This document shows, piece after piece, positions 1-24,805 of a stretch of DNA of 64,000 bases. Both the position numbers and the translations under genes were made by a program. Positions within the stretch are counted from its first letter, which is position 1. Every line of letters begins with the position of its first letter. The DNA comes from an uncultured Gammaproteobacteria bacterium (lineage in GTDB: Bacteria > Patescibacteriota > Patescibacteriia > Magasanikbacterales > GWA2-37-8). The notes under the pieces are model-generated. The model made no database searches, was not told the origin of the DNA, and saw nothing but the letters and a program-made list of their open reading frames with translations. The stretch covers positions 3,084-67,083 of the forward strand of contig CAZHYJ010000005.1 in the NCBI GenBank assembly GCA_964536725.1, in the 5' to 3' direction.

Positions 1-1035
1 TACAAAGAACACGTCGAAGAAGCAATAAAAAATCCCGGTGTGTGTGTAATAAAATATGCTGATTTTGCCAGGAACGCTTTAAGTATTAATAATCTTCCTG
101 AGGGAACAAAAAAGGATAATCTCAGAAAAAAATATGGGCCAGTTATCCAGGAAGTATTTTTGCCGGCTTTTCGTTCCATGTCCGAAAACCACCCCTTATT
201 CAATATTAGAGAAGCGCTTATTTTAGAATTAGAAAAAGCTTACAACGAACAATATTTGGCAGAAAACCCAGTTGAAACCTCCGAAAAAACAGCACAAACT
301 ATCTTGCTTGATTTTCTTGTTGACAATAATTTCCTAACGAGAAATGAAGTAACTTTAATATCTCCTGAAAAAGTTGAGGAGTTGATTGTGAGAACAGCGC
401 ATGACTATGAACATATCCCGAACGAGATTCCACAAATACAGATTGACAAAGCACGACGTATTCTCGGGCTTCAGCCGAATCTTGGTGAAGGCAGAATAGA
501 CACAACAAAAAGGAGTGAGGAAATCAAAAGGCTTACAGATGAAATGAGAAGGTATTTAGAAGAATTTAAAGCACGGTGCCCTGAGGTTTTGGGAGTGATT
601 CTTTGTGGAAGCAGAATGGACTCTGACAAATTACCTGCTCCAAACAGCGATGTAGATACTGTTTTAGTTTTAAAAAAAGGGACTATCACTGACCCTAGCA
701 CCCCGGAAGGTGAAGCACTGTTATATAAACTCAGAGCGTTCTCGGACAGTACGCCAACTGATTCAGGTTTTACCGTTGAACTAGATGAACTTTACTCAGC
801 AGATGACTTGCTGGCAAAACTTAAAAACTCGAACGACAAAAGCAAATTAACATGGGGTTGGAATCCAAGTGCAGTGAAATATATTGGAGACAACATCGAC
901 GACCTAGACGAGTTGGGAGCACAAATAAGAATTCTGGAAGGCATAAATAATCCTGGTGTAGTTAATTTAAAAAAAGAAAAGATTGCCGAAGCTAAAGAAT
1001 TAATCATTCACTATTTGGGACAGATAAAAAAATAA
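1..1035 (+). CDS. Nucleotidyltransferase-superfamily protein (Pol-beta-like NTase fold), 5' partial; the reading frame is open to the window edge and the track start at 40 is GTG
   Basis: C-terminal half has the hG[GS]x9-13[DE]h[DE]h pattern: LCGSRMDSDKLPAPNSDVDTVLVL. The roughly 190 aa upstream region has no recognisable motif. Frame is open from nt 1. Confidence 0.5.
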   Translation, partial: YKEHVEEAIKNPGVCVIKYADFARNALSINNLPEGTKKDNLRKKYGPVIQEVFLPAFRSMSENHPLFNIREALILELEKAYNEQYLAENPVETSEKTAQTILLDFLVDNNFLTRNEVTLISPEKVEELIVRTAHDYEHIPNEIPQIQIDKARRILGLQPNLGEGRIDTTKRSEEIKRLTDEMRRYLEEFKARCPEVLGVILCGSRMDSDKLPAPNSDVDTVLVLKKGTITDPSTPEGEALLYKLRAFSDSTPTDSGFTVELDELYSADDLLAKLKNSNDKSKLTWGWNPSAVKYIGDNIDDLDELGAQIRILEGINNPGVVNLKKEKIAEAKELIIHYLGQIKK

Positions 1036-1954: not shown

Positions 1955-1993
1955 CAAAAAAATATGCCGATCGGACTGATCGGCATATTTTTA
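1955..1993. terminator. Bidirectional intrinsic terminator between convergent genes
   Basis: An A-run, then stem atatgccgat/atcggcatat, then a T-run. It sits between the YkgJ (+) stop and the uvrA-paralog (-) stop. A near-identical stem occurs at 44029-44058. Confidence 0.6.
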
Positions 1994-4579
1994 TAACACT
2001 TTCTTTAAATACTGCCCAGTAAAAGTACCAGCCTTCCGTGCCACTTCTTCGGGTGTACCAGTCGCCGTCACTTCCCCGCCTTTGTCTCCACCCTCCGGAC
2101 CCAAGTCGATTATCCAATCGGCACATTTAATTACGTCTAGGTTGTGCTCAATTACCAACACGGTATTTCCCTGACTAACCAACCGCTCTAATACCACCAG
2201 CAATTTTCGCACATCCTCGTAATGCAGACCAGTGGTCGGCTCGTCTAACAAATACAAAGTTTTGGTAGTACCGTGTTTTGCCAACTCACGACTCAATTTA
2301 ATACGTTGCGCTTCCCCACCTGACAAGGTAGTGGCTGATTGCCCAAGAGTTAAATAATCCAAACCAACCTCATTCAATATTTTCAACTTGTCATAAATCA
2401 TCGGAATATCCCGAAAGAATTCCTCCGCATCTTCGATCGTCATCTCTAAAACGTCCGCGATACTTTTGCCTTTGTAATGAATCTGCAAAGTTTCTTGATT
2501 AAATCTTTTGCCTTTACAAATATCACACCCCACTTTCACGCTGGGCAAAAAATGCATTTCAATTTCCAAATATCCCCGTCCTTCGCAGTTTTCACAGCGA
2601 CCGCCAATACCGCGATGACTACCGTCTTTCGGTGGTAACGACGGAACATTGAAACTAAAACGACTAATACCAAACCCACGCATGCGTGCCTCCGGAGTGG
2701 CTGCAAACAATTCGCGGATAAAATCATAAGCCTTGGTATAGGTGGCAGGATTTGAACGCGGCGTACGCCCGATCGAACTTTGATCGATTGCGATAATCCG
2801 ATCCAAATATTCCATGCCTACAATTTCTTTAAATGCTCCAGTTGGTTTATCTAAATGATTAAATTTGTTAGACACTGCCTTTTCGATAATATCGTGCATC
2901 AAAGTACTTTTACCCGAACCGGACACACCGGTTAAACAAACAAGCCGGCGCAGCGGAATTTCAACAGTAATGTTTTTTAAATTGTGCTCCGTCGCACCTT
3001 TGACTTTCAACTTCGGTGTCGTATTGTCCACCTTACGTCTTTTTTCTGGTGTCGCGATTTTTAATTCACGACGTAAATATTTTCCCGTCAAAGATTTTTC
3101 CGCGCTACCCAAAACCTGACAAACTGGATTACTTGCTTTGTTTTTTGATAACAAACTTATCCGTGGTCCACTGTAAATGATTTCACCACCATGCTTACCT
3201 GCCCCTGGACCAAAATCTACTACCCAATCGCTGGCTAAAATTGTATCTTCGTCGTGTTCCACTACAATAATAGTATTACCAACATCACAAAGATTGCGCA
3301 ATGTTTTTACCAATTGATCATTGTCTTTTTGGTGCAAACCAATTGTGGGCTCATCCAACACGTACAAAGCACCGACCAATCGTGTGCCCACCTGACTGGC
3401 CAAACGAATACGCTGTGCTTCTCCACCTGACAAAGTGCCAGCGGTGCGGTTTAAAGTAAGGTAATGCAAACCCACATCATACATAAACTGCAGACGATTT
3501 TGAATTTCTTTTAAAACTGCTCCGGCGATTTCTTGGTCGCGACTAGGCAGTTCCATTTCTAGTTCCGCAAAAAACTCGCGGACATTGCGAATGTTCAAAG
3601 ACACCACTTCCCAAATATTTTTCCCGCCCACCCGTACGTTCAGTGCGTTTTCATTCAAACGTTTGCCATTACATTTTGGACAAACTTCTTCACTAAACAA
3701 TTCTTTCGTTCCTAAGCCAGTACAATATTCACAATATCCATATGGACTATTAAAACTAAACAAACGCGGCTCAATTTCTGGAAAACTAAAGCCATCCTTC
3801 GGACAAGAATATTCCGTCGAGAAAATTATTTCTTCCTTATCAGGAAAAATCGCGATACACAATCCATTCGCTAAATCCACTGCATTCTCCACCGCCTCAC
3901 TCAAACGCTTTTCAACCTCTGTGGTTAGACCATCGGATAATGAAATACGATCCACCACCACCGCGATATCATGCTTGTCGTTTTTACTCAAAAGCAAACG
4001 CTCGCGCAAACTTTTAAATTTCCCATCCACCCGCACTTCCAAATATCCCGAGTTATACAAATCATACAACATTTGATAATACTCACCTTTGCGCCCCCGC
4101 ACCACAGGCGATAAAATTACTAGTTCATCCTTGCCAGCATGTTTCTTAATTTTTTTAACAATCTGTTCATACATTTCATCTGTTGTCATCTTCTCAATCT
4201 TTGTGCCACACAACGGACAATGCGGCGCGCCGATACGTGCGAACAACACGCGGAGATAGTCATAAATTTCCGTAATGGTTGCTACAGTGGAACGCGGATT
4301 GGCGCTATGTGCTTTTTGATCAATCGAAATGGCTGGTGACAAGCCGTCAATTTCATCCACATCTGGTTTTTGCATGCCGCCCAAAAACTGCCGGGCATAG
4401 GCCGACAATGATTCGATATATCGTCTTTGACCTTCAGCAAAGATAGTATCAAACGCCAAAGAGGACTTGCCTGAACCAGACAAACCCGTAAAAACAATCA
4501 TTTGATTGCGTGGCAACTCCAAAGAAATATTCTTTAGATTGTGCTCGCGCGCTCCTTTGATGATAATTTTGTTTTGCAT
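1991..4579 (-). CDS. uvrA: UvrA-like excinuclease ABC subunit A paralog (862 aa) lacking the insertion domain
   Basis: Two ABC ATPase modules ([18 protein letters not shown]; signature LSGGE twice). Zn module CPLCG..CPKDG..YCEYC..CPKCNGKRL is present. Only about 13 aa separate CEYCTGLG from CPKC, against about 125 aa in the 936-aa paralog at 20622-23432. Confidence 0.85.
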   Translation of the reverse strand: MQNKIIIKGAREHNLKNISLELPRNQMIVFTGLSGSGKSSLAFDTIFAEGQRRYIESLSAYARQFLGGMQKPDVDEIDGLSPAISIDQKAHSANPRSTVATITEIYDYLRVLFARIGAPHCPLCGTKIEKMTTDEMYEQIVKKIKKHAGKDELVILSPVVRGRKGEYYQMLYDLYNSGYLEVRVDGKFKSLRERLLLSKNDKHDIAVVVDRISLSDGLTTEVEKRLSEAVENAVDLANGLCIAIFPDKEEIIFSTEYSCPKDGFSFPEIEPRLFSFNSPYGYCEYCTGLGTKELFSEEVCPKCNGKRLNENALNVRVGGKNIWEVVSLNIRNVREFFAELEMELPSRDQEIAGAVLKEIQNRLQFMYDVGLHYLTLNRTAGTLSGGEAQRIRLASQVGTRLVGALYVLDEPTIGLHQKDNDQLVKTLRNLCDVGNTIIVVEHDEDTILASDWVVDFGPGAGKHGGEIIYSGPRISLLSKNKASNPVCQVLGSAEKSLTGKYLRRELKIATPEKRRKVDNTTPKLKVKGATEHNLKNITVEIPLRRLVCLTGVSGSGKSTLMHDIIEKAVSNKFNHLDKPTGAFKEIVGMEYLDRIIAIDQSSIGRTPRSNPATYTKAYDFIRELFAATPEARMRGFGISRFSFNVPSLPPKDGSHRGIGGRCENCEGRGYLEIEMHFLPSVKVGCDICKGKRFNQETLQIHYKGKSIADVLEMTIEDAEEFFRDIPMIYDKLKILNEVGLDYLTLGQSATTLSGGEAQRIKLSRELAKHGTTKTLYLLDEPTTGLHYEDVRKLLVVLERLVSQGNTVLVIEHNLDVIKCADWIIDLGPEGGDKGGEVTATGTPEEVARKAGTFTGQYLKKVL

Positions 4580-4669
4580 AAAAACGCCAAAAAGCCCCTA
4601 AAACGGGGTTACATACCAGACTATTAAAATACAAAGAACAGCTTAATTATACTAAATTAGTGTGAATTG

Positions 4670-5434
4670 TCAAGCGGCTTCTCTATAGTCTTCTTCTCTT
4701 GGACTAACAGCAACCGTGTCTCTGCCTGTAATTTTTCTTCCACCAAACCCACCTGTCTTAGAAGAGACATCTTCTACATTTTCCGTATTCACCAAAGCGC
4801 CGGAATCGCCATTAAACCACTGCCATACCATTTCAACAGGGAAAGTGTTTGTTTTCATTTCAGCACCCATTTTATAGGTCACTCGAATTTTTTTGCCATC
4901 TTCTATAATATCGTAGATATTTGAAAATCTATCTTTACCACCATCCACTATTCTAATATTTAACAGATCACCTTTGTATTTTGATTTCAATATCGAATCC
5001 AACCATTCAGCTGCTTTCCTGTCTTCTGTTTTATATTTTTTATAATACAAATCCGGATGATTATTTTTACAATCTGATTGGAGAGACAAAAATTCCTTAA
5101 CCCTAATTCTTCTTGGCGGCATGCTTTCATCTTCTTCAAAACCATCTTTAACAAGCGGTTGGACTAACACTAGATCCTCCGTTTGACCAGGCATATTATC
5201 CTTAAGCGGTGCACTAATCATTCGTCCTAACTCATACTTTCCATTAGCCGATGGTATCCAAACAACTTTCCCCATCATCGCCGTTGCTTCTCGGTAGAGC
5301 CGACTTCTTTCTCTTTCATTAACATTTTCCTCTATATTACCCACCGCCGCTGGCCTTGATTCTGGGGACTTTTCCCCTGCTTTAGCATATTTTTCTAATT
5401 CATTATAAAACCCTCCCATCATTCCTTCTCTCAT
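4670..5434 (-). CDS. Hypothetical protein (254 aa) between the uvrA paralog and uvrB
   Basis: Long ORF in the same operon orientation. Gly-rich C-terminal tail (GGFGGRKITGRD). No recognisable motif. Confidence 0.45.
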   Translation of the reverse strand: MREGMMGGFYNELEKYAKAGEKSPESRPAAVGNIEENVNERERSRLYREATAMMGKVVWIPSANGKYELGRMISAPLKDNMPGQTEDLVLVQPLVKDGFEEDESMPPRRIRVKEFLSLQSDCKNNHPDLYYKKYKTEDRKAAEWLDSILKSKYKGDLLNIRIVDGGKDRFSNIYDIIEDGKKIRVTYKMGAEMKTNTFPVEMVWQWFNGDSGALVNTENVEDVSSKTGGFGGRKITGRDTVAVSPREEDYREAA

Positions 5435-5477
5435 ATAAATAAGTTAAATTAACAATTTCAACATAATTACTATACCA

Positions 5478-7544
5478 CTATTTTTTTCCACCGACAATCT
5501 TGTTTTTACCCAGACCTTTCCTCAACACATCAACCTCGTCTCGCAAAATCGCCGCCAACTCAAACTCCAGATCTTTAGCCGCTTCACGCATCTGCTGTTC
5601 TTTTTCTTTGATAATTTCCCCCACCGGACGACCATCGCCCAGCAGATCTAATTCTAAAATATCTTTAATTCTTTCTTTGCCTTTTCTTTTACCTGCTTTT
5701 TCTTTGCTACCAGAAATGCCAAATTCTTCTAAAATATTTCTAATACTTTTCACGATCGTCTTCGGCGTAATACCATGTTTCTTGTTGTACGCCAACTGTA
5801 CTTTCCGGCGACGATCTGTCTCTTCAATCGCGCGTTTAATTGAACCAGTAATATTATCCGCATACAAAACCACCCGACCATTAGCGTTGCGCGCGGCACG
5901 GCCGATAGTTTGAATCAAACTAGTGGTACTACGCAAAAATCCTTCCTTATCTGCATCCAAGATCGCTACGAGCGACACCTCAGGCATGTCCAACCCTTCA
6001 CGCAAAAGGTTGACGCCGATAATTACATCAATCTCGCCCTTGCGTAGGGCGGCGATAATCTCAATTCGTTCAAGTGTTAAAATATCGCTGTGTAAATATT
6101 TTACCTTTACTTTCTTTTGTAATAAATAATCACTCAAATCTTCCGCCATTTTTTTAGTTAAAGTGGTAACCAATACTCGCTCGTTCACTTTAACGCGTTC
6201 ATCAATCATCACCATCAAATCTTCGATCTGCGATTTTACCGAACCATCTTTTTTGCCTGTCACCGGTCGGATGATCACCTCGGAATCAACCAAACCTGTT
6301 GGACGCACCACCTGCTCTACCACTTGTTGGCTAGCAGTTAATTCATATTCATCTGGAGTAGCCGAAACATATACCGTCTGTACCACCCGGCTTTCAAATT
6401 CTTCATAACGCAACGGCCGATTGTCTCGCGCACTCGGCAACCTAAACCCATGTTCCACCAAAATATCTTTACGTGCCTTGTCGCCATTGTACATCCCCCG
6501 AATCTGGGGCACGGTCATATGCGACTCATCGATCACGGTTAAGAAGTCCGGTGAACAATATTTAAAATAATCCAACAACGAAAAAGGCGGCTCACCTGCG
6601 GCGCGATTTTCAAAATGACGGGAGTAGTTTTCAATACCATTACAATAACCAAGATTTTGGATCATTTCCAAATCATAATTCACCCGACGTTTTAATCTCT
6701 CATATTCCAAAACTTTTCCTTCATCTTCAAATTGTTTTAATTGTTCTGCCAACTCCGCTCGAATCGAAAGAACCGCTTTGTCACGTGCCGCCGGACTAGC
6801 GACATAATGCCGAGCGGGAAAAATCCACGCATCCGAAACTTCGCGTTTTACTTTCCGCGTCACCGGATCCACCTGTTCAATCAAATCGATTCTCTCCCCC
6901 ACTTCGAAACGATAGATCATTTCTTCGTTCACCGGCATCAGCTCAAACACCTGGCCATGCAAACGAAAACTACCCCGTTTCAAATCACTGTTAGTTCTTT
7001 CAAATTGCATCTCCACTAATTGTGCCAACAATTCTTCGCGATTGAGCTTTTGATCAACTGTTAGATGCAAAACAATTTTTTCATATTCTGCCGGCGAACC
7101 CAAACCATATATCGCAGAAACTGAGGCGACGATAATCACATCCTTACGCATCAGCAAAGCTTGGGTGCAAGCATGGCGCAAACGATCGATCTCTTGATTG
7201 ATCTGTGCTTCTTTTTCGATGTAGGTGTCAGAGTGTGGTAGATATGCTTCAGGTTGGTAGTAGTCATAATAGGAAACAAAATATTCCACCGCATTGTCCG
7301 GAAAAAATTCACGGAATTCATTGCACAACTGCGCCGCTAAAGTTTTGTTGTGGGCGATGACCAAAGTCGGCAGCTTTACCTCATTAATCACATTGGCAAT
7401 CGTAAAAGTTTTACCCGAACCGGTAACACCAAGCAATGTCTGTTTAGACATTTTTTGTTTCAACCCTGCCACCAGCTTTTCAATCGCTTCCGGCTGATCA
7501 CCGGCGGGCTTCATTTTAGTTTGTAATTTAAAAATCTCTTCCAT
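5478..7544 (-). CDS. uvrB: Excinuclease ABC subunit B (UvrB)
   Basis: GVTGSGKTFTIANVI Walker A; helicase motifs; C-terminal UVR-like coiled coil (EQQMREAAKDLEFELAAILRDE). Confidence 0.93.
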   Translation of the reverse strand: MEEIFKLQTKMKPAGDQPEAIEKLVAGLKQKMSKQTLLGVTGSGKTFTIANVINEVKLPTLVIAHNKTLAAQLCNEFREFFPDNAVEYFVSYYDYYQPEAYLPHSDTYIEKEAQINQEIDRLRHACTQALLMRKDVIIVASVSAIYGLGSPAEYEKIVLHLTVDQKLNREELLAQLVEMQFERTNSDLKRGSFRLHGQVFELMPVNEEMIYRFEVGERIDLIEQVDPVTRKVKREVSDAWIFPARHYVASPAARDKAVLSIRAELAEQLKQFEDEGKVLEYERLKRRVNYDLEMIQNLGYCNGIENYSRHFENRAAGEPPFSLLDYFKYCSPDFLTVIDESHMTVPQIRGMYNGDKARKDILVEHGFRLPSARDNRPLRYEEFESRVVQTVYVSATPDEYELTASQQVVEQVVRPTGLVDSEVIIRPVTGKKDGSVKSQIEDLMVMIDERVKVNERVLVTTLTKKMAEDLSDYLLQKKVKVKYLHSDILTLERIEIIAALRKGEIDVIIGVNLLREGLDMPEVSLVAILDADKEGFLRSTTSLIQTIGRAARNANGRVVLYADNITGSIKRAIEETDRRRKVQLAYNKKHGITPKTIVKSIRNILEEFGISGSKEKAGKRKGKERIKDILELDLLGDGRPVGEIIKEKEQQMREAAKDLEFELAAILRDEVDVLRKGLGKNKIVGGKK

Positions 7545-7546
7545 AA

Positions 7547-8644
7547 TTAGTATCTTTTTTCAATCACACTCTGCACCATCCCAACCATCAAAAGATTAAC
7601 AATCAAAGACGAACCACCATAACTAACAAACGGTAACGTCACACCCGTCACTGGTAATAATCCCAAATTGGCGCCAACGTTGATAACCAACTGACTAAAA
7701 AATACCAGCGTCACCCCACTCACTATTACCGCGGCAAAATCATTATCGGAATGCCGAATAATCCGTATCAGCCGCCAAAACACAAAACCGAATAAACCCA
7801 ACACTGCGGCCGCACCAGCAAAACCTAATTCTTCACCAATCACTGAGAAAACGAAATCAGTCTGTGCTTCCGGTAAAAACCGCAACTGACTTTGCGAACC
7901 AAAACCCAAACCGCGCCCAAAAAACTTACCCGAACCAATGGCGATCGCCGCTTGATTGGTATTGTACCCTGCTCCCAATGGATCCGACGCTGGATTAACA
8001 AAAGTTAACACACGATCTTTTTGATAATCTTGCAAAAGAAAAAACCAACTAAAAACTGCCACCACCATTACCCCCACCATTAAACCAATTAAATACAATC
8101 GTCGTGCGCCGACTAGACACATAATACCAAACCAAATCAAACCAAGTATTACTGCCGAACCAAGATCCGGCTGAAACATAACCAAAACGATCGCCGCTAA
8201 AGTAATCATCCCCGTACCAAAGAAAAAAAGTGGCCGCTCAAAATGCCGACCAAAACGCGACACTACATGAGCTAAAACAAGAACCAACCCCCACTTGGCC
8301 AACTCCACTGGTTGAAAAGAGAATCCCGCAACTGCAAACCAACCACGCGTGCCACGAATGGTGGAGCCAAAAAACAGAACAGCTAACAACAAAATTAGAC
8401 AAATAAGAAAAAACCACTTCGCATAGGAACGAAAAAAACCGCTCTGACGACTGGCGGCGAGGAACATTAAGGTAGTACCGATAAGAAGCGCAATCGATTG
8501 TTTGCGAAAATATATTAATTCCTGACCACGCGAAAGATCCACGCTATAAATCGCCGCCAAACCAATCAAAATCAAAAAAAACACGGCCCCCGTCAATCCC
8601 CAATCAAAATTACGCCATGAAAACTTAGAAAAAATTCCCGACAT
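7547..8644 (-). CDS. SEDS-family cell-wall polymerase (FtsW/RodA)
   Basis: Polytopic membrane protein of typical SEDS length. Stop abuts the uvrB start (3-nt gap). Confidence 0.7.
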   Translation of the reverse strand: MSGIFSKFSWRNFDWGLTGAVFFLILIGLAAIYSVDLSRGQELIYFRKQSIALLIGTTLMFLAASRQSGFFRSYAKWFFLICLILLLAVLFFGSTIRGTRGWFAVAGFSFQPVELAKWGLVLVLAHVVSRFGRHFERPLFFFGTGMITLAAIVLVMFQPDLGSAVILGLIWFGIMCLVGARRLYLIGLMVGVMVVAVFSWFFLLQDYQKDRVLTFVNPASDPLGAGYNTNQAAIAIGSGKFFGRGLGFGSQSQLRFLPEAQTDFVFSVIGEELGFAGAAAVLGLFGFVFWRLIRIIRHSDNDFAAVIVSGVTLVFFSQLVINVGANLGLLPVTGVTLPFVSYGGSSLIVNLLMVGMVQSVIEKRY

Positions 8645-8649
8645 AGTTT

Positions 8650-9621
8650 TTAGCTAGTAGGGGGAAGATATACTGAATTGTCGTAAATGTCAATCAACGG
8701 AAACACCCTCACATCTGTCACATTTAAACCAGTAACAAAACTGCGCAAATCAATCGCTCGAGTAGTACCTGCTACAAAACTGGGCAAGCGCAATTGCAAA
8801 ACACCCATCAACGTTTCGCCCTGAAACAAACCAACAGCAAAGTTTGCTTCTACATAAGAATACGGACTGGCATTATTTAAATTAAATTTAATTATATTCG
8901 CCGCCGCGCCTTCATCAGTATTAATACTACCAGCAGGCTCGAAAGAAAAATCACTCACCTTAAAATTCAAACGCGCTGCCTGCCACGCCGTCACATCGGT
9001 AATTTGATGATTCGAAATACGACGCCATTGTAAATTACTTATCACTAGCTCCGCTCCGCTCGGATATTCTGTTTGATCATATCCTAAATGGGCAATCATC
9101 TTGGTTTCTTCTGGTAAAAGAAAAGCACGTTGTACTGGCGTCGGCGCACCATCAATATTAAAATAATAATCAAACGAAACGTAGAATCGATTGTTAGGAT
9201 TGGACACCTCACCTACCAAATCATATTTCTTTACTCCCCCTTGCAGAATCTGTGTGCCTGCAATTAAAAGCGGTGCCGGAGAATATGCGGGATGGATGAC
9301 CGTGTAATCATAAAAATACGCAAGGTCGCGATCCAATTTACTGCCGCTTTGCAATTCGTAAAGTGCCAAGCTACCACCCCTAATCAAAACATACAACCAA
9401 AAAATCACACTAAGTCCAATCAAAAACCCCACTGCCACGCGATACAACACCACCCGATTGCGCGCAAACCAAAAACCCCACTTAAACTCTGAAGTGGTAA
9501 ACTCAGCGGTTGGATCGGTATAACGAGTAAAACTTGGTTTAGGTAATTTCGAAGCGGAGTCCGGAGTAGGTGTACTAGCACTATCATTATTACCATTTTT
9601 TTGGTTATATATATTAAGCAT
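8650..9621 (-). CDS. Hypothetical membrane-anchored protein (N-terminal TM, extracytoplasmic domain)
   Basis: One N-terminal hydrophobic helix (VVLYRVAVGFLIGLSVIFWLYVLI), then about 230 aa with no motif. First gene of the minus-strand operon. Confidence 0.45.
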   Translation of the reverse strand: MLNIYNQKNGNNDSASTPTPDSASKLPKPSFTRYTDPTAEFTTSEFKWGFWFARNRVVLYRVAVGFLIGLSVIFWLYVLIRGGSLALYELQSGSKLDRDLAYFYDYTVIHPAYSPAPLLIAGTQILQGGVKKYDLVGEVSNPNNRFYVSFDYYFNIDGAPTPVQRAFLLPEETKMIAHLGYDQTEYPSGAELVISNLQWRRISNHQITDVTAWQAARLNFKVSDFSFEPAGSINTDEGAAANIIKFNLNNASPYSYVEANFAVGLFQGETLMGVLQLRLPSFVAGTTRAIDLRSFVTGLNVTDVRVFPLIDIYDNSVYLPPTS

Positions 9622-9727
9622 AGAATAGATTAATTTCGTTATTACTATTATACCTCAAAAACCGTTTTTCTTAAATACACGGCCTTGCCGACCTGGAGTA
9701 TTTATGGTAAAATTAAGTCACTTTTAA

Positions 9728-11959
<2,232 letters not shown>

Positions 11960-11967
11960 AATAGCTA

Positions 11968-11996
11968 TTGACGAAAGTAGCTATTTGTGCTAAGAT
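11968..11996 (+). promoter_or_regulatory. Sigma70-like promoter candidate (TTGACG-17-TAAGAT) followed by a hairpin
   Basis: Consensus-like hexamers with 17-nt spacing. A hairpin at 12015-12037 lies immediately downstream, so its function is uncertain. Confidence 0.3.
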
Positions 11997-12014
11997 ATAC
12001 GCATAAATAATTTA

Positions 12015-12038
12015 AAACGGCCCTTCAAAGGCTGTTTT
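12015..12038 (+). terminator. Hairpin downstream of gyrB, a possible weak terminator
   Basis: Stem aaacggcc/ggctgttt with loop cttcaaa. The T-tract lies within the stem and is followed by A's. Confidence 0.35.
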
Positions 12039-12058
12039 AAAAACCTTAAAAAATATAT

Positions 12059-12132
12059 CCGCTAAAGCGATATATTCTCATTCACTCGGAAATGAAAAAC
12101 TACATTTTTCATTTCTCTCATTCATTTCGAAT
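12059..12132 (+). promoter_or_regulatory. Conserved leader with palindromic operator-like motif ATATAT-CGC-TAAA-GCG-ATATAT, duplicated at 32096-32139
   Basis: ccgctaaagcgatatattctcattcac ... ctcattcatttcgaatATG. The second copy upstream of the sugar transferase gene matches 26 of 28 nt of the core and shares ctcattc..tcgaatATG. The secE copy carries an extra internal hairpin (ggaaatgaaaaa/tttttcatttct). Confidence 0.5.
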
Positions 12133-12327
12133 ATGCAAATATTTTCCGCGATCAAAAACTACTTCGTCAGCTCATACGCTGAAATGAAGAAGGTTTCCTG
12201 GCCAACTAAAAAACAAACTATTAACTACAGTTTGTTAGTTATTGGTCTTTCAATTGGTATGGCGGTGTTTTTCGCTGTCTTAGACTATGTCTTCAACCTT
12301 GGTATCGCCGAGCTCATTACTCGCTAA
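12133..12327 (+). CDS. secE: Preprotein translocase subunit SecE
   Basis: Small single-TM protein (VSWPTKKQT...IGLSIGMAVFFAVLDYVF) immediately upstream of nusG. Confidence 0.85.
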   Translation: MQIFSAIKNYFVSSYAEMKKVSWPTKKQTINYSLLVIGLSIGMAVFFAVLDYVFNLGIAELITR

Positions 12328-12350
12328 GCCCAATATAATTTTAAAACAAT

Positions 12351-12896
12351 ATGGCAAAACAAACACTTAATCTTGGGCGACGCTGGTATGTGCTACACAC
12401 CTACTCCGGTTACGAAGAAAATGTAAAACACAACCTCGAACAACGTGTCGAATCTTTTGACATGCGCGATAAGATTTTTGGAATAATCGTTCCCAAAGAA
12501 AAAAGAATTAAAATCAAAAACGGCAAACGTACCACGGTGGAAGAAAAAATCTTCCCGGGTTACGTCTTGGTAGAAATGATCGTTACTGATGATTCTTGGT
12601 ACGTAGTGCGTAACACGCCAAACGTTACTGGTTTCGTTGGTTCCGGTACTACCCCAACTCCGATTGACCAAAAAGAAGTTGACCAACTTTTGAAACGGGT
12701 TAACTCGGCTGAGCCACAACACAAGATTGATATCAACATTGGCGACATTGTACGCATCTCTGACGGCCCATTCAAGAACTTTGAAGGCAAGGTTTCTGCC
12801 GTTGATGCTGAACGCAGCAAGATCAAAGTCATGGTCACTATGTTCGGTCGTGAGACCCCAGTGGAATTAGACGCTTTACAAGTTAAGAAAATTTAG
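12351..12896 (+). CDS. nusG: Transcription termination/antitermination factor NusG
   Basis: NGN domain (WYVLHTYSGYEENV) and C-terminal KOW (GDIVRISDGPFKNFEGKV). Confidence 0.92.
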   Translation: MAKQTLNLGRRWYVLHTYSGYEENVKHNLEQRVESFDMRDKIFGIIVPKEKRIKIKNGKRTTVEEKIFPGYVLVEMIVTDDSWYVVRNTPNVTGFVGSGTTPTPIDQKEVDQLLKRVNSAEPQHKIDINIGDIVRISDGPFKNFEGKVSAVDAERSKIKVMVTMFGRETPVELDALQVKKI

Positions 12897-12964
12897 GTAG
12901 TATGTTAAACGCGACTGGTATCGAGTTAATCGGTACGCTTCTCAGGCGCATTAAATAATAATAT

Positions 12965-13390
12965 ATGGCAAAAAAACTATTAACTCAAATCAAATTACAG
13001 ATCGTTGGTGGCGCCGCTAATCCAGCTCCTCCAGTCGGTCCAGCCCTTGGTCAACACGGTTTGAACATCCAGGGTTTCTGTAAGGAATTCAACGACAAGA
13101 CCCAAGACAAAAAAGGTGATGTCGTACCAGTAATCATCAACGTTTACGCCGACCGCACTTTTGACTTCGTTATGAAGACGGCTCCAACTGCTGAGCTCAT
13201 CAAGAAAGCGGCTAAGATCCAAAAAGGTTCTGCTAAACCTTTGCAAGAAAAGGTTGGCAAAATCACCAAGGCCCAAGTCAAAGAAATCGCCGAAAAGAAA
13301 ATGACTGACTTGAACGCCAAGGATTTAGGCGGTGCAATGAGAATGGTGGAGGGTACTGCTAAACAGATGGGTGTGACGATTGAAGGATAA
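12965..13390 (+). CDS. rplK: 50S ribosomal protein L11
   Basis: [28 protein letters not shown] is the L11 signature. Conserved order secE-nusG-rplK. Confidence 0.95.
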
Positions 13391-13402
13391 AAAAACAAAA
13401 AA

Positions 13403-13435
13403 ACACTCCGATTTAAGTCGGAGTGTTTTATTTTA
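13403..13435 (+). terminator. Intrinsic terminator after rplK
   Basis: Stem acactccgattt/aagtcggagtgt followed by tttatttt. Confidence 0.75.
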
Positions 13436-13514
13436 TCTCTTTTTCACTTTCAAATCCTCGCCGCTTTCTACAAATTTTGCAAAAAACGGGGAAGGGATTT
13501 GAAGGTGAAGCCCT

Positions 13515-13832
13515 TCAGAAGGTGGGGGGAATAAATACCCCGAAGAGGGAGAGGGCGAACGAGGCAAGACGGCACAATCCATAGGAAAGCCCGTAACCGA
13601 CAGCACCGCTAACGATAGCGACGATGGCGGTAACCACGACCACCACGATCGTCGCAACAGTAGAGAAACCTGCCCACCACACGAAACTGTGCCGACGAGG
13701 CTGTCCGCCCAATCTGGTGGCATGACGAGCCAGGCCAACCACGATACCACAGATGGACAGAACCACCCAGAATGCCACGACCCCCACAATTGCGAAAGTC
13801 ATCGCAGTTGACCAGCAGAGCATGGTTTCCAT
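13515..13832 (-). CDS. Small hydrophobic membrane protein on a GC-rich island; start taken at the internal METM downstream of a GAGGAG ribosome-binding site
   Basis: Local GC is clearly higher than the flanks. GAGGAG sits 6 nt before the ATG. About 105 aa with two or three TM helices (FAIVGVVAFWVVLSICGIVVGLA; VATIVVVVVTAIVAIVSGAVGYG). Confidence 0.4.
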   Translation of the reverse strand: METMLCWSTAMTFAIVGVVAFWVVLSICGIVVGLARHATRLGGQPRRHSFVWWAGFSTVATIVVVVVTAIVAIVSGAVGYGLSYGLCRLASFALSLFGVFIPPTF

Positions 13833-13954
13833 GATTAACTCCTCGAGACAAGAGATGATAGTATACAAACACAAAAAACACCATTTTGTCAAGATTGCAA
13901 ATACCAAGGAAACAAAAAACCGGCCATAAGACCGGTTGCGAACAAAAAAACAAA

Positions 13955-15061
13955 CTAACCCAGACAACTGGCTATGTCTTGTTTAATTTTTTCGTACTCT
14001 GCTTTATCTTTTAAACCATAGTTTACTTGGGTATAACCAAAAGTTAATTTTTGCAGAAAACTCATTGGCTTCTCGGCCAGTTTCTTTAATTCTTTTTTTG
14101 TCTCCTCACCAAGCTGATAACGATCCAACATTCTTCTTATCGCCACTGCATGATCTACACCATTTCCATGTTGCAACGCTGCCGAAGAAGACATTAGAAA
14201 AATAAACAAATCCCGTGCCTGCCTCTCTGGTACTGGCACTTTGGGACTATATTCCGTCTCCGGATCGCAAATATGAACATTCTGATCCTTATCGATAATC
14301 ATATTGGGCAAATTCAGTTCACCCCACTGTACCCCTTGAGTATGCATTGCTTTAGTTTGATCAACAACTTTGTCCAACACCCCCATCAAACCATCCGCAT
14401 CCATGTCTTTAGCAAAATCACACTCACCATAATCTTTAATTAACGAACGATTGGCAAACAAATCATATAAGTTAACATTGGGGAGATAATCCATCACTAT
14501 TGTATTAGGATCGCTGTTGTTAATAGTGGGGATCTGACTACGACGCTCGAAAGTTTCTTTCCATTTTATTGAATCGGCTTTTTTAATTTTCCTACCACTC
14601 AAAGTCTTAAAAATATTATCAAATTTTCTATGAATCCAAGAGGTTGGGTAGTTGAAAACTACAAATAATTTCCGGCCGCTTTCTAAAGTAACGATTTTAG
14701 TTTGTGTGCTATAACTATGAACATGACAATCATATTCAGCCGCCGTGTTATTTCCTTTAATTATCGCCGGCGCACGAAAACCAACTTCTTTTTTAAGATC
14801 TTTAATTTTTCCTTCCAACTCACCCTGCTCCTTGGTTGTTAAAACTGCCCCAGAAATGGTGGCTGGGCTTTCTGGACCTAAAATAGCTGCGCGCACCTCC
14901 TCTATGCGATCTTTAATGTCCGCTTGCTTTCCTTCCCCAACACCACGTAATTCCGCGATCTTTGGTCCAAAATCTGGACCACCATCTTCTACCTTTTGTG
15001 GAGCTTTGTCTTTTCCTCTCTCCGTTGGATGTCCAAGCGGGTCCCTGTCTAAAGTGTCCAT
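13955..15061 (-). CDS. Protein-kinase-like fold protein (APH/Kdo/RIO-like, atypical) with a disordered N-terminal region
   Basis: WGELNLPNMIID resembles the HGDLHxxN catalytic loop and NVHICDPE the DFG-like metal-binding region. A Glu sits where the catalytic Asp is expected. Stop lies 10 nt before the queA start. Confidence 0.35.
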   Translation of the reverse strand: MDTLDRDPLGHPTERGKDKAPQKVEDGGPDFGPKIAELRGVGEGKQADIKDRIEEVRAAILGPESPATISGAVLTTKEQGELEGKIKDLKKEVGFRAPAIIKGNNTAAEYDCHVHSYSTQTKIVTLESGRKLFVVFNYPTSWIHRKFDNIFKTLSGRKIKKADSIKWKETFERRSQIPTINNSDPNTIVMDYLPNVNLYDLFANRSLIKDYGECDFAKDMDADGLMGVLDKVVDQTKAMHTQGVQWGELNLPNMIIDKDQNVHICDPETEYSPKVPVPERQARDLFIFLMSSSAALQHGNGVDHAVAIRRMLDRYQLGEETKKELKKLAEKPMSFLQKLTFGYTQVNYGLKDKAEYEKIKQDIASCLG

Positions 15062-15070
15062 ATAAAAAAA

Positions 15071-16171
15071 TTATTGTATAAACATGGCGTCACCAAAACT
15101 ATAGAAGCGATATTTTGCTTCTACTGCTTTTTGGTAACACTCTAATGTGAATTCCCTACTCCCTACAAATGCTGATACCAGCATTATCAACGTGGACTCA
15201 GGTAAATGAAAATTAGTAATCAACGCATCCACCACTTTAAATTCAAACCCGGGTGTAATAAAAATATTAATATCACCACTAAATGCTTCCAGTCGCCCAC
15301 GTTTAGCAAAAATTCCTTCCAACGATCGCACGGCGGTTGTTCCCACTACGACCACTCGCCTACCTTGCGCTTTAGCCGTGTTTATCAGCTGTGCATTTTT
15401 ATCTGTCAGTTCCACCCACTCTGGATGCATTTTGTGTTCTTCCACCTTTTCGGTCTTCACCGGCAAAAATGTTCCCAAACCAACATGCAAAGTAACTTCG
15501 GCAAATTCGACTCCTTGGTTTTTTAATTGCTCAATCAATTCCGGAGTAAAATGAAAACCAGCTGTTGGTGCCGCTACCGACCCTTCCTCTTTTGCATACA
15601 CCGTTTGATAGCGTTCGTCCAAATTCAATCCGATCGCTTTACCACTCATCTCTTTGATATATGGTGGCGTTGGCACCTCGCCATATTTATTCGCCTTAGC
15701 CCGCACAGTCATATCATCATCTTTAAATTGCACCAGAACAGTGCCGTCTTCTTCTTTGGTAATCACCTCGGCAAAAAAGTCTTCCGCAAAAACAACCTTC
15801 ATTCCCAAACGTAATTTCTTCCCCGGCTTCGCCAACACCTTCCACACCCCAAAATTTTCCATTGGTCTAACCAAAAATATTTCAACACTTGGTGTATTAA
15901 AAATTCTATCCGTTAAATCTTTGCCTTTTATCTCCAACACTTCTTCGTCTAAAAGTAACACTCCCTTTAATCGCGCCTTAAGCACTTTCGAATTGTTCCA
16001 CACCAACAGATCGCCGGGACGTAGATATTCACCGATATTAAAAAACTGGCGATGATTAACTTCTCTCGTTGTGCGATTAATCACCATTAGACGCGACTGA
16101 TCACGTCGCTCGGCTGGCGTTTGGGCGATTAGTTCTTTGGGTAAATTGTAATCAAAATCGGAAGTTAACAT
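15071..16171 (-). CDS. queA: S-adenosylmethionine:tRNA ribosyltransferase-isomerase QueA
   Basis: N-terminal MLTSDFDYNLPKELIAQTPAERRDQSRLMV matches QueA. Length 366 aa. Confidence 0.9.
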   Translation of the reverse strand: MLTSDFDYNLPKELIAQTPAERRDQSRLMVINRTTREVNHRQFFNIGEYLRPGDLLVWNNSKVLKARLKGVLLLDEEVLEIKGKDLTDRIFNTPSVEIFLVRPMENFGVWKVLAKPGKKLRLGMKVVFAEDFFAEVITKEEDGTVLVQFKDDDMTVRAKANKYGEVPTPPYIKEMSGKAIGLNLDERYQTVYAKEEGSVAAPTAGFHFTPELIEQLKNQGVEFAEVTLHVGLGTFLPVKTEKVEEHKMHPEWVELTDKNAQLINTAKAQGRRVVVVGTTAVRSLEGIFAKRGRLEAFSGDINIFITPGFEFKVVDALITNFHLPESTLIMLVSAFVGSREFTLECYQKAVEAKYRFYSFGDAMFIQ

Positions 16172-16174
16172 ATT

Positions 16175-17032
16175 TTAACGTAAATATTTCGCCACGTTAA
16201 CATTGTGCTCTTCCAGTGTCTTCGCGTAATGCATCACTCCGTCGGTGCCACTCATAAAATACCAGTAATCATTTTTTGTTGGGTAAAGTGTCGCATTGAT
16301 TGCTTTTAAACTCGGATTACCAATTGGACCAAGTGGTAGGCCAGGATATTTATAGGTATTATAAAAAGAATCTATTTGACGATCCTCTGCATTGACGGCT
16401 GGGTCATTTTTACCGGTAACATAATTCACAGTTGCACACGATTGCAGTGCCCAGTTTTTTTGCAGACGTCTCCAAAAAATATCTGCCACCAATTTCATAT
16501 CTTCCGCCGATGCCGCCTCCCGCTCTACTACCGATGCCATGGTTAAAATATCAAACCACGTTTTTTTCTGTGCAACGGCTTCAGTGCGCATTTCAGGAAT
16601 AATTTTGTCATCTAAAACAGAAAATATTTTTTTGATAATTTCTTCTGGCTTGGCGTCAGCATAAACACGATAGGTTTCTGGTAAAAAATATCCTTCATAT
16701 GAGACACTGCTGGATTTGTCCGTAAACAATTCAGCCAAAGTCCCGGTCGCTGTCCAGTCCAAAACCGGCGAAACAGTTTTTACCGCACGATAATTTTTTG
16801 CCGGCTCACCCACCAATGCATATAGCTCATCTTCGTTTTTAATCAACCCTTTTTTAACCCAATCAGTAGCAATCTGGCGCAAATTCCACCCGGGGATAAT
16901 AGTGATGTTTATCTCTGGACGTGGTGGCAATGGAACATATTTTGGCCGACTAAAATGACGGTAACCAAAAATACCCAATACTGCCAATATGATTATTGCG
17001 ATTAAAAATGTGTTTATTTTTTGGATATTCAT
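16175..17032 (-). CDS. mltG: Endolytic murein transglycosylase MltG (YceG family)
   Basis: N-terminal TM, then YceG-like motifs (GYFLPETY, YNTYKYPGLPLGPIGNPS). Confidence 0.85.
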   Translation of the reverse strand: MNIQKINTFLIAIIILAVLGIFGYRHFSRPKYVPLPPRPEINITIIPGWNLRQIATDWVKKGLIKNEDELYALVGEPAKNYRAVKTVSPVLDWTATGTLAELFTDKSSSVSYEGYFLPETYRVYADAKPEEIIKKIFSVLDDKIIPEMRTEAVAQKKTWFDILTMASVVEREAASAEDMKLVADIFWRRLQKNWALQSCATVNYVTGKNDPAVNAEDRQIDSFYNTYKYPGLPLGPIGNPSLKAINATLYPTKNDYWYFMSGTDGVMHYAKTLEEHNVNVAKYLR

Positions 17033-17733
17033 TCGATTGTTGGAGGATTAAACTTTTCTTCCGCACGATAATATTTCTCTAGTGTGTCTGTCGGAAACCA
17101 TTGCCCATTGTGACAACAGGAAAAAATTACACCACTCGGAGATAGTTTTTCAAAACAATCACGCTCGATCATACAAAAACCTTCTGGCAACATTTCCAAA
17201 ACGTCTTTCTCCATTACATATCCGCCAGCGTTATTTAAATTTGATGGCGCCTCTTCCACCTTAGGTTTTTCGATAAACCGCTTAATCTTCTCCCCTTCTA
17301 ATTCAGCAATACCAAATTGCGTTACATCCTCCACCGGAAAAAGTGCCAGGGTAATTTTGGCTGGATTGCGTTCATGTGTTGCAATTAATTCCGTCCAGTC
17401 AAAATCCGCCAAATTATCACCATTAATTACCAAAAATTTTTCGTTAATATTTTCTGCCGCTTTACGAATCGCACCACCCGTTCCTAGCGGAGCATCCTCA
17501 ATACAATATTCAATATTCATCCCCCATTTACTACCATCACCAAAATATTCTTTAATCAATTCCGCACGATAGCCAATCGAAAGAATAACATCGGTGATAC
17601 CATGTTTTTTAAAATTTAATAAAGCGTGCTCGATAATTGGCTTACCCTTAATTGTTAAAAGTGGTTTGGGAATATTTTCCGTTAATGGTCGTAAACGTGT
17701 TCCTAAACCACCTGCTAGAATGATTGCTTTCAT
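17029..17733 (-). CDS. Sugar-phosphate nucleotidyltransferase (NDP-sugar pyrophosphorylase family)
   Basis: MKAIILAGGLGTRLRPLTENIPKPLL is the GGxGTRLxPLT motif. 4-nt overlap with mltG. Confidence 0.85.
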   Translation of the reverse strand: MKAIILAGGLGTRLRPLTENIPKPLLTIKGKPIIEHALLNFKKHGITDVILSIGYRAELIKEYFGDGSKWGMNIEYCIEDAPLGTGGAIRKAAENINEKFLVINGDNLADFDWTELIATHERNPAKITLALFPVEDVTQFGIAELEGEKIKRFIEKPKVEEAPSNLNNAGGYVMEKDVLEMLPEGFCMIERDCFEKLSPSGVIFSCCHNGQWFPTDTLEKYYRAEEKFNPPTIE

Positions 17734-23440: not shown

Positions 23441-24805
23441 TTATTTAAACAAATAATCATAGACTTTATAGTCAGCGCTCTCATCCATATCATAAATTTT
23501 TTCTGCGTCAACATTTGCTAACATACCCGATGGATCTTTTAGCTTCTCAAGCGAAATAAAATATTTTTTATTGATTTTATCAGCGTTCTTTAAAAAGAAA
23601 CCCTGATCACCCAGATCGACAACTGACCCATTATCAAAACCAACTAAGTGCGCCTCGTCTTTAGGGTCCCAGTTTTCATTCATCTCAAACATCAAGACAA
23701 AACCCCGTAATCCTTTATGGCTGCCAGCACAACGCTTAGCCGCTTCATCCAAATCAGCCACATCAGCATCAATTAGATAGGTCTGATTTTTATCATCAAT
23801 CTTACCGCCATAATCACCATTACTCACATCTGTTGTATCTCTGTCCTCACAAACTGCCCATAACTCTGATTCACCCACATTTATTGCTGGATAATCCCAA
23901 GTTTCAAGCTTTAAACCTTCAAGAGGGTGAATTTCTTTCTCAAGAGAATTATAAGCAACCTTACCTCCAATCAAACCAGCACGACAAACATACAAATTTT
24001 TCGTCGGCTGTTTGTAGTCTGGAGCACAGAGTTGCATCTTGCTATCACTCCTCGGTTCACAAAAATCCCCCACACAAGTATTGCCCCCACTGTTTTTTAC
24101 ATAAAATTGCCTGCCGCAGGCGAATTCTTTCGTTCGACTAAAAGTTAAATCGAAGGAGGCGGTCTTATATTTATCTTTATCAACTAATTCCCCTGGCTCA
24201 GCAGCAAAAGCAAAGCTAGTAGAAGACGGGATTTTACTACAATAGTCCGGCACTATAGAACTAGATCGCACCATAAACGTCTGTGGCAACCGCAAATTCA
24301 CCAACGCCGGATTGATTGTGCTTAAAATCACATAGGAAAGATACGCGATCAGTAAACCAATCAACGCCCCGCCAATACGTTTCTTTGCGCTACTAATCGC
24401 CTCACTGCTCCCAGCGGAAGTCACCCATTGCACCCCAGCGATAATTATCATAATCGCCGCCAAAATGCCGACCACACTAATAATGTAGTTGTAATTTACA
24501 AAAAGAAACTCACCAATATCTTTAAACGTTGTCTGTCCGCCAAATTTAATTTGTGTTTCTGTCACTCCGGCCGGCAAACATTTTCCCCATCCCGTCTTAT
24601 TACACGGCTCCTCCCCCTGCAGCCAACCACCCTCCAAAACTTGTTGTGTAGCATCCGGATTAAATTGTTTTCTGGCTGCAACACAAGCTTCCTTTTCCCA
24701 ACAAATTGGATTAAACTCGGGAATCAATTCGGTGTCCGCAGCGCGCACAGAAAAAACAGGCAGGAGCAGCGCTCCTAACAGTAATACAAAAAAAATTCGC
24801 TTCAT
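23441..24805 (-). CDS. Secreted Cys-rich protein with a VirB2/TrbC-like two-helix membrane hairpin (paralog of 52418 and 54043)
   Basis: Signal peptide [22 protein letters not shown] and a Cys-rich N-terminal domain. Central [53 protein letters not shown] is nearly identical to the equivalent segments of the other two paralogs. The 280-aa C-terminal domain has about 10 Cys. Confidence 0.6.

Follow-up and report, generated by a model that had tools for sequence, protein, structure and literature searches.

Can a UvrA protein that has lost its insertion domain (ID) serve in excision repair, and if so, what does a second UvrA in the same genome contribute? The role of the ID has been in dispute ever since deletion mutants yielded conflicting results, although it is now presented as central to the way in which UvrA clamps, unwinds and reads damaged DNA. 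A stretch of 64,000 nucleotides from an uncultured member of the Magasanikbacterales (Patescibacteriota; GenBank assembly GCA_964536725.1, contig CAZHYJ010000005.1), here called the window, raises the question directly. It encodes one UvrA of 862 amino acids (aa) without the ID, on the same strand as uvrB and downstream of it, and another UvrA of 936 aa with the ID. We find the 862-aa protein to be a genuine natural UvrA, under strong conservation, from which the whole ID has been lost; this architecture is fixed in a large clade of Patescibacteria and is not rare. The 936-aa paralog has decayed in the complementary place, its UvrB-binding domain (UBD), and together both proteins may form a pair with divided labor. 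The four open reading frames (ORFs) in question, which lie where the initial annotation of this DNA had put them, and the features within and around them are as follows.

1991-4579, minus strand: uvrA paralog without the ID, 862 aa (ORF, Pfam, alignment to PDB structures, NCBIfam)
3659-3733, minus strand: compact zinc module 2 at the usual site of the ID (translation)
3848-4168, minus strand: UBD of the 862-aa UvrA, residues 138-244 (Pfam stretch)
1958-1992, minus strand: strong intrinsic-terminator-like hairpin, with a T run after its 15-bp stem, where the ID-less uvrA ends
4646-4673, minus strand: sigma-70-like promoter, 12 of 12 consensus positions (by consensus match)
4670-5434, minus strand: ORF254, an orphan ORF of 254 aa between uvrB and the ID-less uvrA, overlapping the promoter at its stop codon
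5478-7544, minus strand: uvrB, 688 aa, with the full domain set (Pfam)
20622-23432, minus strand: second uvrA, 936 aa, ID-bearing, with a divergent UBD and a variant zinc-3 hairpin (Pfam, motif comparison)
22263-22574, minus strand: ID of the 936-aa UvrA, residues 287-390 (Pfam stretch, translation)
22722-23039, minus strand: divergent UBD of the 936-aa UvrA, residues 132-237 (Pfam, alignment to Geobacillus stearothermophilus UvrA)

Domain content of the ID-less UvrA

The 862-aa protein matches the UBD family PF17760 with 92.9 bits and gives no Pfam match to PF17755, the ID family. Aligned to a solved UvrA (9gxk chain A), its residues 3-298 correspond to residues 24-311 and its residues 295-862 to residues 423-960, so that about 112 residues (311-423) are skipped. 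The compact zinc module 2 that stands there, translated as CEYCTGLGTKELFSEEVCPKCNGKR (window 3659-3733), reads CEYCTGLG-TKELFSEEV-CPKCNGKR, and its two CxxC pairs are 13 residues apart, compared with 119 in the 936-aa paralog. The initial annotation had described a UvrA paralog that lacks the ID, keeps the UvrB-binding region and does not belong to class II, and all of this is borne out; its 13-aa linker is correct as the distance between the CxxC pairs but shrinks to 9 residues between the motifs as it had written them, and its figure of about 125 aa for the 936-aa paralog was too high.

Judged by the features of class I UvrA that were tested, the protein has the ATPase modules, the UBD, the three zinc modules and an equivalog-level score, and lacks only the ID. 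It has neither of the two traits tested for class II, the UBD and zinc module 1 being present and the ID absent. Both ATPase sites are intact, with Walker A (GLSGSGKSS), LDEPT twice, the signature and the H-loop (VVEHD/VIEHN), and these are invariant in the clade, as is the intact loop of signature domain II, a DNA-binding surface. The predicted zinc ligands (Zn1, C121, C124, C259 and D262; Zn2, C283, C286, C300 and C303; Zn3, C662, C665, C685 and C688) are likewise invariant, the second half of zinc module 1 being C-P-K-D, with one Cys and an Asp, and not CxxC. Comparisons within the clades were made with 48 sequences per clade for the Pfam counts and with 48 for the alignment of invariant positions. 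The UBD carries the canonical motifs VRGRKGEY and KNDKHDIAVVVDR, and its R225 and E231 align with R216 and E222 of G. stearothermophilus UvrA. The sequence of the latter was rebuilt from the alignment, and R216 and E222 fall where the UvrB-interaction residues have been placed (PMC3025350). R161 to Y167 and R225 are invariant in the ID-less clade, and E231 is common.

Whole-protein measures agree with this picture. The NCBIfam equivalog models NF001503 (1263.6 bits, cut-off 1147) and TIGR00630 (1206.2 bits, cut-off 729.8) both match, each in two stretches. An AF2 model built on 48 relatives has a mean pLDDT of 77.9, and its best fold match, at a TM score of 0.82, is 3uwx_A, the UvrA of the UvrA-UvrB crystal structure.

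Two lineage-specific inserts were seen in the protein besides the missing domain. Directly before zinc module 3 stands SLPPKDGSHRGI (window 2612-2647, residues ~646-657). The second insert, of variable sequence, precedes the SLTGKYL motif (~3095-3155, residues ~475-495), and there length variation across relatives accounts for the clade members of 900-955 aa. Neither the 12-residue insert nor the variable one is conserved in the clade consensus, and we rejected both as compensation for the lost ID.

Conservation of the architecture

How general is this loss? A scan of one genome per species gave at least 600 matched stretches, at least 574 of them confirmed relatives, and the best 80 of these are the related loci discussed here. 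Nearly all of the 80 come from metagenome-assembled genomes (MAGs) of Magasanikbacteria or other Patescibacteria, and where relatives of the two window UvrAs carry a name, it is again that of Candidatus Magasanikbacteria or of other Patescibacteria. Every one of the 80 loci has the compact zinc module 2, far beyond chance. The 9-residue linker (consensus TKELFSEE) is kept in 77, the other 3 having an extra 10 residues (GGSAxGGS), and linker residues T291 and F295 are invariant in the 48 aligned sequences. Among the 120 best matches in a collection of 5.8 billion proteins (70-100% identity, 847-955 aa), none has PF17755. In independent assemblies, the ID-less uvrA is identical and the gene order of the window is exactly reproduced.

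An artefact of assembly or annotation or a decaying pseudogene would be another explanation of the missing ID; nothing was found in its favor, and we give it a negligible chance. The 862-aa ORF is intact and the same in independent assemblies, the compact module recurs in all 80 loci from different MAG projects, the clade alignment has very many invariant positions, and the AF2 model folds as a UvrA; the first three of these rule out both forms of the explanation.

The initial annotation had called the architecture unusual. This is right in that the literature we searched describes only engineered deletions and no natural ID-less UvrA, an account in a subscription journal being possible, and wrong in that the protein is widespread, the scan of species-representative genomes having matched at least 574 stretches. 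Additional classes of UvrA are named in older reviews. An attempt to gauge the spread of ID-less UvrAs with the 181-aa zinc-2 segment against a library of representatives at 50% identity had to be rejected since double-length UvrAs, each of which sums the scores of several matching stretches, dominated the ranking. The clade of the query itself was apparently merged under other representatives, and that search gave no measure of spread.

A paralog with a weakened UvrB dock

The 936-aa protein aligns end to end with solved UvrA structures. It scores 97.1 bits for the ID but only 42.3 bits for the UBD, compared with ~93 bits for the UBD of the ID-less paralog, 90 for that of P0357 (an 845-aa ID-less outlier with 57% identity) and ~92-125 per domain in the tandem UvrAs described below. 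The difference holds across the two clades: at E<=1e-18, PF17760 is found in 48 of 48 members of the ID-less clade and in none of 48 of the ID-bearing clade, whereas PF17755 is found in none of the former and in all 48 of the latter. The ID-less clade keeps the UBD motifs VRGRKGEY, KNxKHxIxVVVD and QRLxEAVE, which the 936-aa clade is without. In the 936-aa protein, RCGQVE stands in place of RGRKGE, and there, as in its clade, no Arg occupies the position equivalent to R216, where an adjoining 3-residue deletion makes the alignment uncertain. Its UBD is 0.22 identical to that of G. stearothermophilus UvrA, compared with 0.34 for the ID-less paralog.

Outside the UBD, the 936-aa clade departs from the solved class I UvrAs in signature I (LSGGEVTRVRL), after the H-loop (HDxAMM) and in the zinc-3 hairpin, which is a variant of IEMHFLPDV; these departures lie at residues ~477-490, 536-545 and 747-760. 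The core of the hairpin is Q/A in 117 of 120 members of the ID-bearing clade and H/P in all 120 members of the ID-less clade. Over the whole protein, the identity to G. stearothermophilus UvrA is 57.8% for the ID-less paralog (outside the gap) and 54.0% for the 936-aa paralog, and the two share 52% with each other. Both pass the NCBI equivalog cut-offs for UvrA and are for this reason annotated as plain UvrA. By these comparisons, the 936-aa UvrA, which the initial annotation had taken to be canonical, is not simply so, its UBD being degraded throughout its clade. Of the two, the ID-less paralog is the more canonical and evolves more slowly, and the paralogs complement each other.

The two kinds of UvrA also occur together. 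ID-less and ID-bearing matches fall on contigs of equal size (96074, the window's own; 778751; 48803; 202660; 45796; 96850; 1343778; and 234253), and one further pair shares the MAG name RIFOXYD2_FULL_41_14, which makes at least nine assemblies in all. In two loci (L006 and L070) the second paralog is less than 10 kb from the ID-less uvrA. A neighbor-joining tree on 718 ungapped columns gives 19% support to a sister relation of the two paralogs.

Tandem UvrAs as a natural parallel

The zinc-2 segment search returned about 150 representatives (P0242-P0391), most of them UvrAs of 1500-2300 aa built from a tandem pair of UvrA modules. Sorted by the spacing within zinc module 2, 54 representatives have an ID in both halves, 42 have it in the N half and lack it in the C half, 4 show the reverse, and 1 has it in neither. 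The strong bias toward loss in the C half suggests that the two tandem halves are not functionally equivalent. Six tandem UvrAs with the ID in the N half and none in the C half were checked with Pfam, and PF17755 was confined to the N half in all six. The best PF17760 match lies in the ID-less C half in 5 of the 6, and in P0269 and P0294 this is the only UBD. P0243 has a UBD in both halves, the better one being in the ID-bearing N half. When UvrA modules are permanently paired, one tends to lose the ID, and the ID-less one tends to hold a good UvrB dock, as is the case for the two genes of the window.

The named tandem UvrAs belong to Planctomycetota and Fibrobacterales and are all annotated as plain UvrA. 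In a rough neighbor-joining tree they fall outside a well-supported group made up of the ID-less clade, the ID-bearing clade and G. stearothermophilus UvrA. The ID was lost more than once, since the C half of P0243, which has no ID, clusters at 91% support with that of P0245, which has one. The zinc-3 hairpin EMQFL[AS]D was considered as a mark of the partner of an ID-less module and rejected, as the N halves of double UvrAs with two IDs carry it too.

Two independent assemblies show P0243 as one unbroken ORF. In locus L082, with the tandem gene at 8001-13352, two genes with XPB/ERCC3-type helicase domains (Helicase_C_3 and ERCC3_RAD25_C) follow directly at 13349-17100, with overlapping stop and start codons. 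P0243 and these genes are a possible bacterial UvrA-XPB-like repair cluster.

Comparison with known UvrA proteins

The 862-aa protein shares with the class I UvrAs of G. stearothermophilus (2R6F/3UWX), Escherichia coli, Thermotoga maritima (3PIH) and Mycobacterium tuberculosis (3ZQJ) the ATPase modules, the three zinc modules, the UBD and the EMHFLP zinc-3 hairpin. It differs from them in that the entire ID (~287-399 in G. stearothermophilus) is replaced by the conserved 9-residue linker. Its nearest functional analogues are laboratory deletions of the ID, E. coli UvrA lacking residues 290-400 and G. stearothermophilus UvrA without the ID, in which the same domain is missing at the same site and the UBD is kept. 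Such deletions work with UvrB, incise short substrates and support Mfd-dependent repair, and the E. coli protein discriminates damage poorly (PMC3025350). Unlike these constructs, the 862-aa UvrA occurs in nature, where purifying selection acts on it; its linker is conserved, and it seems always to be in the company of an ID-bearing paralog.

Class II UvrAs (Deinococcus radiodurans UvrA2, 2VF7; DrrC; and Ecm16, 7SH1) resemble the window pair in being second paralogs beside a main UvrA and in missing one accessory domain. The loss is the opposite one, however, as class II proteins are without the UBD and zinc module 1 and need the ID for DNA binding (PMC10192343). The 862-aa UvrA scores 576 and 424 bits against class II and ~1000 bits against class I. 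Many tandem UvrAs of ~1750-1950 aa (e.g., RME03298.1, MDB9744133.1 and MBN1441489.1) match the pair as a whole, joining an ID-bearing module with a weak or absent dock to an ID-less module with a good dock, and in their ID-bearing halves the zinc-3 hairpin is the EMQFL[AS]D variant, as in the 936-aa paralog. They differ from the window pair in having the modules fused in one chain.

Linkage to uvrB

The UvrB of the window has the domains PF12344, PF17757 (the UvrA-interaction domain, 75.9 bits), PF00271, PF04851 and PF02151 (the C-terminal UVR motif). In 57 of the 80 related loci, the ID-less uvrA has a uvrB gene upstream of it and in the same orientation; of the 53 loci whose upstream sequence extends for 6 kb or more, 43 do so. 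The gene for the outlier P0357 also follows uvrB. As a pointer to the loading of UvrB, this linkage is circumstantial. The gap between the two genes ranges from 77 bp to 8 kb in relatives and is at most 230 bp in 11 loci. In the window, the two genes are on the same strand with no terminator-like site between them. A promoter-like sequence, TTGACA-16-TATAAT, matching the consensus at 12 of 12 positions, lies at 4673-4646 on the minus strand, 67 nt upstream of the start of the ID-less uvrA and overlapping the ORF254 stop codon, and the gene probably has its own promoter. The claim that uvrA forms an operon with uvrB is to be taken with reservations: the genes are same-strand neighbors, linked in 57 of the 80 loci, but a perfect consensus promoter precedes uvrA and the gaps vary in relatives. 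The ID-less uvrA is a conserved neighbor of uvrB, and the two may or may not be cotranscribed. The leader of the gene, of about 60 nt, contains a hairpin, CCCC-GTTTTA-GGGG, followed by CTTTTT (4585-4612, minus strand), which looks like a weak terminator or attenuator and has a stem below the reporting size of the terminator scan.

ORF254, the 254-aa ORF that had been noted between the two genes, is present and is called as a gene in independent assemblies, but it is not a conserved operon member. It has no Pfam or NCBIfam match, finds only itself among 5.8 billion proteins and has no tblastn match in the 80 related loci; its AF2 model has a low-confidence pLDDT of 57. Because there is no family match, no homologue and no counterpart in the related loci, we take it to be an orphan insertion and not a part of the UvrA/UvrB system. 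The slot between uvrB and uvrA looks like a hot spot for gene insertion since it is filled by different unrelated genes in related genomes. By sequence inspection, 21 loci have a SanA/DUF218-like protein there, and 27 have a small lipoprotein encoded on the opposite strand; a TypA-like GTPase, a decarboxylase and secreted proteins also occur. They look unrelated to repair, and we rejected them as repair partners.

A proposed split of labor between the paralogs

In cryo-EM structures of M. tuberculosis UvrA, two IDs clamp and unwind DNA. Within the homodimer, one protomer holds the lesion by its ID, and the other lets go with its own ID and takes up UvrB, the ID-DNA and UBD-UvrB contacts being mutually exclusive on one protomer, and "recognition" and "support" protomers have been proposed (PMC11985968). 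A degraded dock in one gene and a lost clamp in the other suggest that, in this bacterium and many of its relatives, each of the two UvrA functions has passed to a protein of its own. We put the probability that the paralogs are such a division-of-labor pair, most likely a single asymmetric heterodimer in which the ID-less subunit recruits UvrB, at roughly 45%, a tentative estimate that draws on the reciprocal domain decay, the co-occurrence and, by analogy, the natural fusions. The 936-aa subunit would clamp and recognize damaged DNA through its ID, the ID-less subunit would dock and load UvrB, and the two would act together in a heterodimer that hard-wires the asymmetry of the ordinary homodimer; once UvrB is loaded, standard UvrABC excision repair would continue. 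It is conceivable, at somewhat longer odds, that the whole lineage has exchanged the symmetric homodimer for an obligate asymmetric pair, with the sole ID on one subunit, the sole competent UvrB dock on the other and a single UvrB loaded, and that the same solution arose again as the fused double UvrAs.

Several observations weigh against a heterodimer. The tandem UvrAs, which share only 35-50% identity with either of the window paralogs and are not their orthologs, offer an analogy and not a proof. Engineered ID-less UvrAs are homodimers in vitro (PMC3025350). The two uvrA genes of the window are 16 kb apart, and the ID-less one has the consensus promoter match directly upstream. The UBD of the 936-aa protein still passes the Pfam gathering cut-off (42.3 versus 23.3 bits) and may still bind UvrB, and the uncertain alignment caused by the 3-residue deletion affects the very position at which the Arg equivalent to R216 would be lost. 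Co-occurrence was judged from contigs and loci, and strict co-dependence is not established by it.

The chief alternative, less likely in our view, is a pair of independent homodimers. The ID-less dimer would be the ordinary UvrB loader of nucleotide excision repair (NER), with its poorer damage discrimination tolerated in a genome of ~1 Mb, and the 936-aa paralog would be largely UvrB-free and class II-like, serving, for example, in tolerance of DNA-binding toxins. It fits this arrangement that the ID-less paralog is closer to canonical UvrA (57.8% versus 54.0%), more conserved in its clade and linked to uvrB, that engineered ID-less UvrAs still support incision (PMC3025350) and that the 936-aa paralog is altered in signature I, the post-H-loop region and the zinc-3 hairpin. 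However, the latter keeps a recognizable UBD and zinc module 1 under purifying selection, both of which are deleted in true class II proteins, and the recurrent fusion of ID-bearing and ID-less halves is left unexplained. Moreover, the ID is central to lesion clamping (PMC11985968), and a sole sensor without it should do poorly on long DNA (PMC3025350). A role as a specialist of transcription-coupled repair is more doubtful still. In that case Mfd would bring the ID-less UvrA to stalled RNA polymerase, where it would need no damage-recognition domain of its own, and global repair would fall to the 936-aa paralog. E. coli UvrA lacking residues 290-400 is indeed selectively defective in global repair while keeping Mfd-dependent strand-specific repair, and the UBD, canonical here, is also the likely Mfd-binding domain (PMC3025350). 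Global repair by the 936-aa paralog would, however, depend on a functional UvrB dock, the very domain that is degraded, and the tight linkage to uvrB is not specific to this model. No mfd was found in the window (no ORF long enough; Pfam on most large ORFs), in the 80 loci (where, judged by length and N terminus, none of the ORFs of 800 aa or more is Mfd-like) or in the extra flank, a sample too small to infer absence, and a literature search on Mfd in Patescibacteria gave nothing relevant.

Of the roles that the initial annotation had offered, "housekeeping partner of UvrB" suits the ID-less protein better than a "non-NER role", in view of its more canonical UBD, zinc-3 hairpin and signature motifs, its slower evolution and its equivalog scores.

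Implications for UvrA function

With a natural, widespread and selected ID-less UvrA, whose partner paralog retains the ID and has a weakened dock, nature has already set up the experiment. The pair permits direct tests of whether one ID and one dock per dimer are enough, whether recognition and UvrB recruitment take place on different protomers and how many UvrB molecules are loaded. If the asymmetric pair is real, one ID and one UvrB dock per UvrA dimer would suffice for excision repair, and the asymmetry seen by cryo-EM in homodimers would be the essential working state. The plain annotation "UvrA" covers at least three architectures (ID-less, UBD-degraded and tandem-fused) and hides variation in repair among candidate-phyla bacteria and Planctomycetota. 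The 862-aa protein, a new natural form of UvrA, is frequent in a single large uncultured lineage, and what it implies for the division of work in UvrA dimers is plausible and can be tested.

Neighboring genes

The G+C content of the window is ~0.42 throughout. Among the window ORFs scanned (Pfam on most, not all, large ORFs), there is no uvrC, uvrD or mfd, and no uvrC was seen in the 80 related loci, judged by the size and N terminus of their ORFs, or in the extra flank beyond the window, again too small a sample to infer absence. Two other repair or recombination genes are present, a RadA/Sms-like gene (KaiC/AAA_25 plus zinc ribbon; 55664-57028, plus strand) and recG (57577-59649, minus strand; identified through locus L084).

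Upstream of uvrB, a rodA/ftsW gene (7547-8644) ends 2 bp before the uvrB start. The ID-bearing uvrA is preceded, 8 bp upstream of its start and on the same strand, by a gene for a 454-aa secreted or membrane protein with a weak T4SS_pilin match (23441-24805, minus strand), and upstream of this lies a DsbA-like thioredoxin gene (24807-25592). Given these neighbors, the ID-bearing uvrA is embedded in a string of cell-envelope genes and not in a repair operon.

The genes next downstream of the ID-less uvrA run in the opposite direction and encode a 123-aa SET-domain protein, a protein with a CxxCxxCC zinc/iron-chelating domain and the C-terminal part of a 524-aa HD_4 protein, the ORFs on this side being at 1047-1418, 1421-1927 and 40-1035 (plus strand). 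Farther out, as seen in locus L086, an AAA_33 kinase-like gene and a gene for a Fic protein follow. In 15 or more of the related loci (L005, L019, L020, L022, L028, L030, L040, L043, L045, L049, L053, L055-L057 and L063), an ORF of ~915 aa that starts with a zinc-ribbon-like motif, CxxC...CxxCxGMS, lies ~4-8 kb downstream of the ID-less uvrA.

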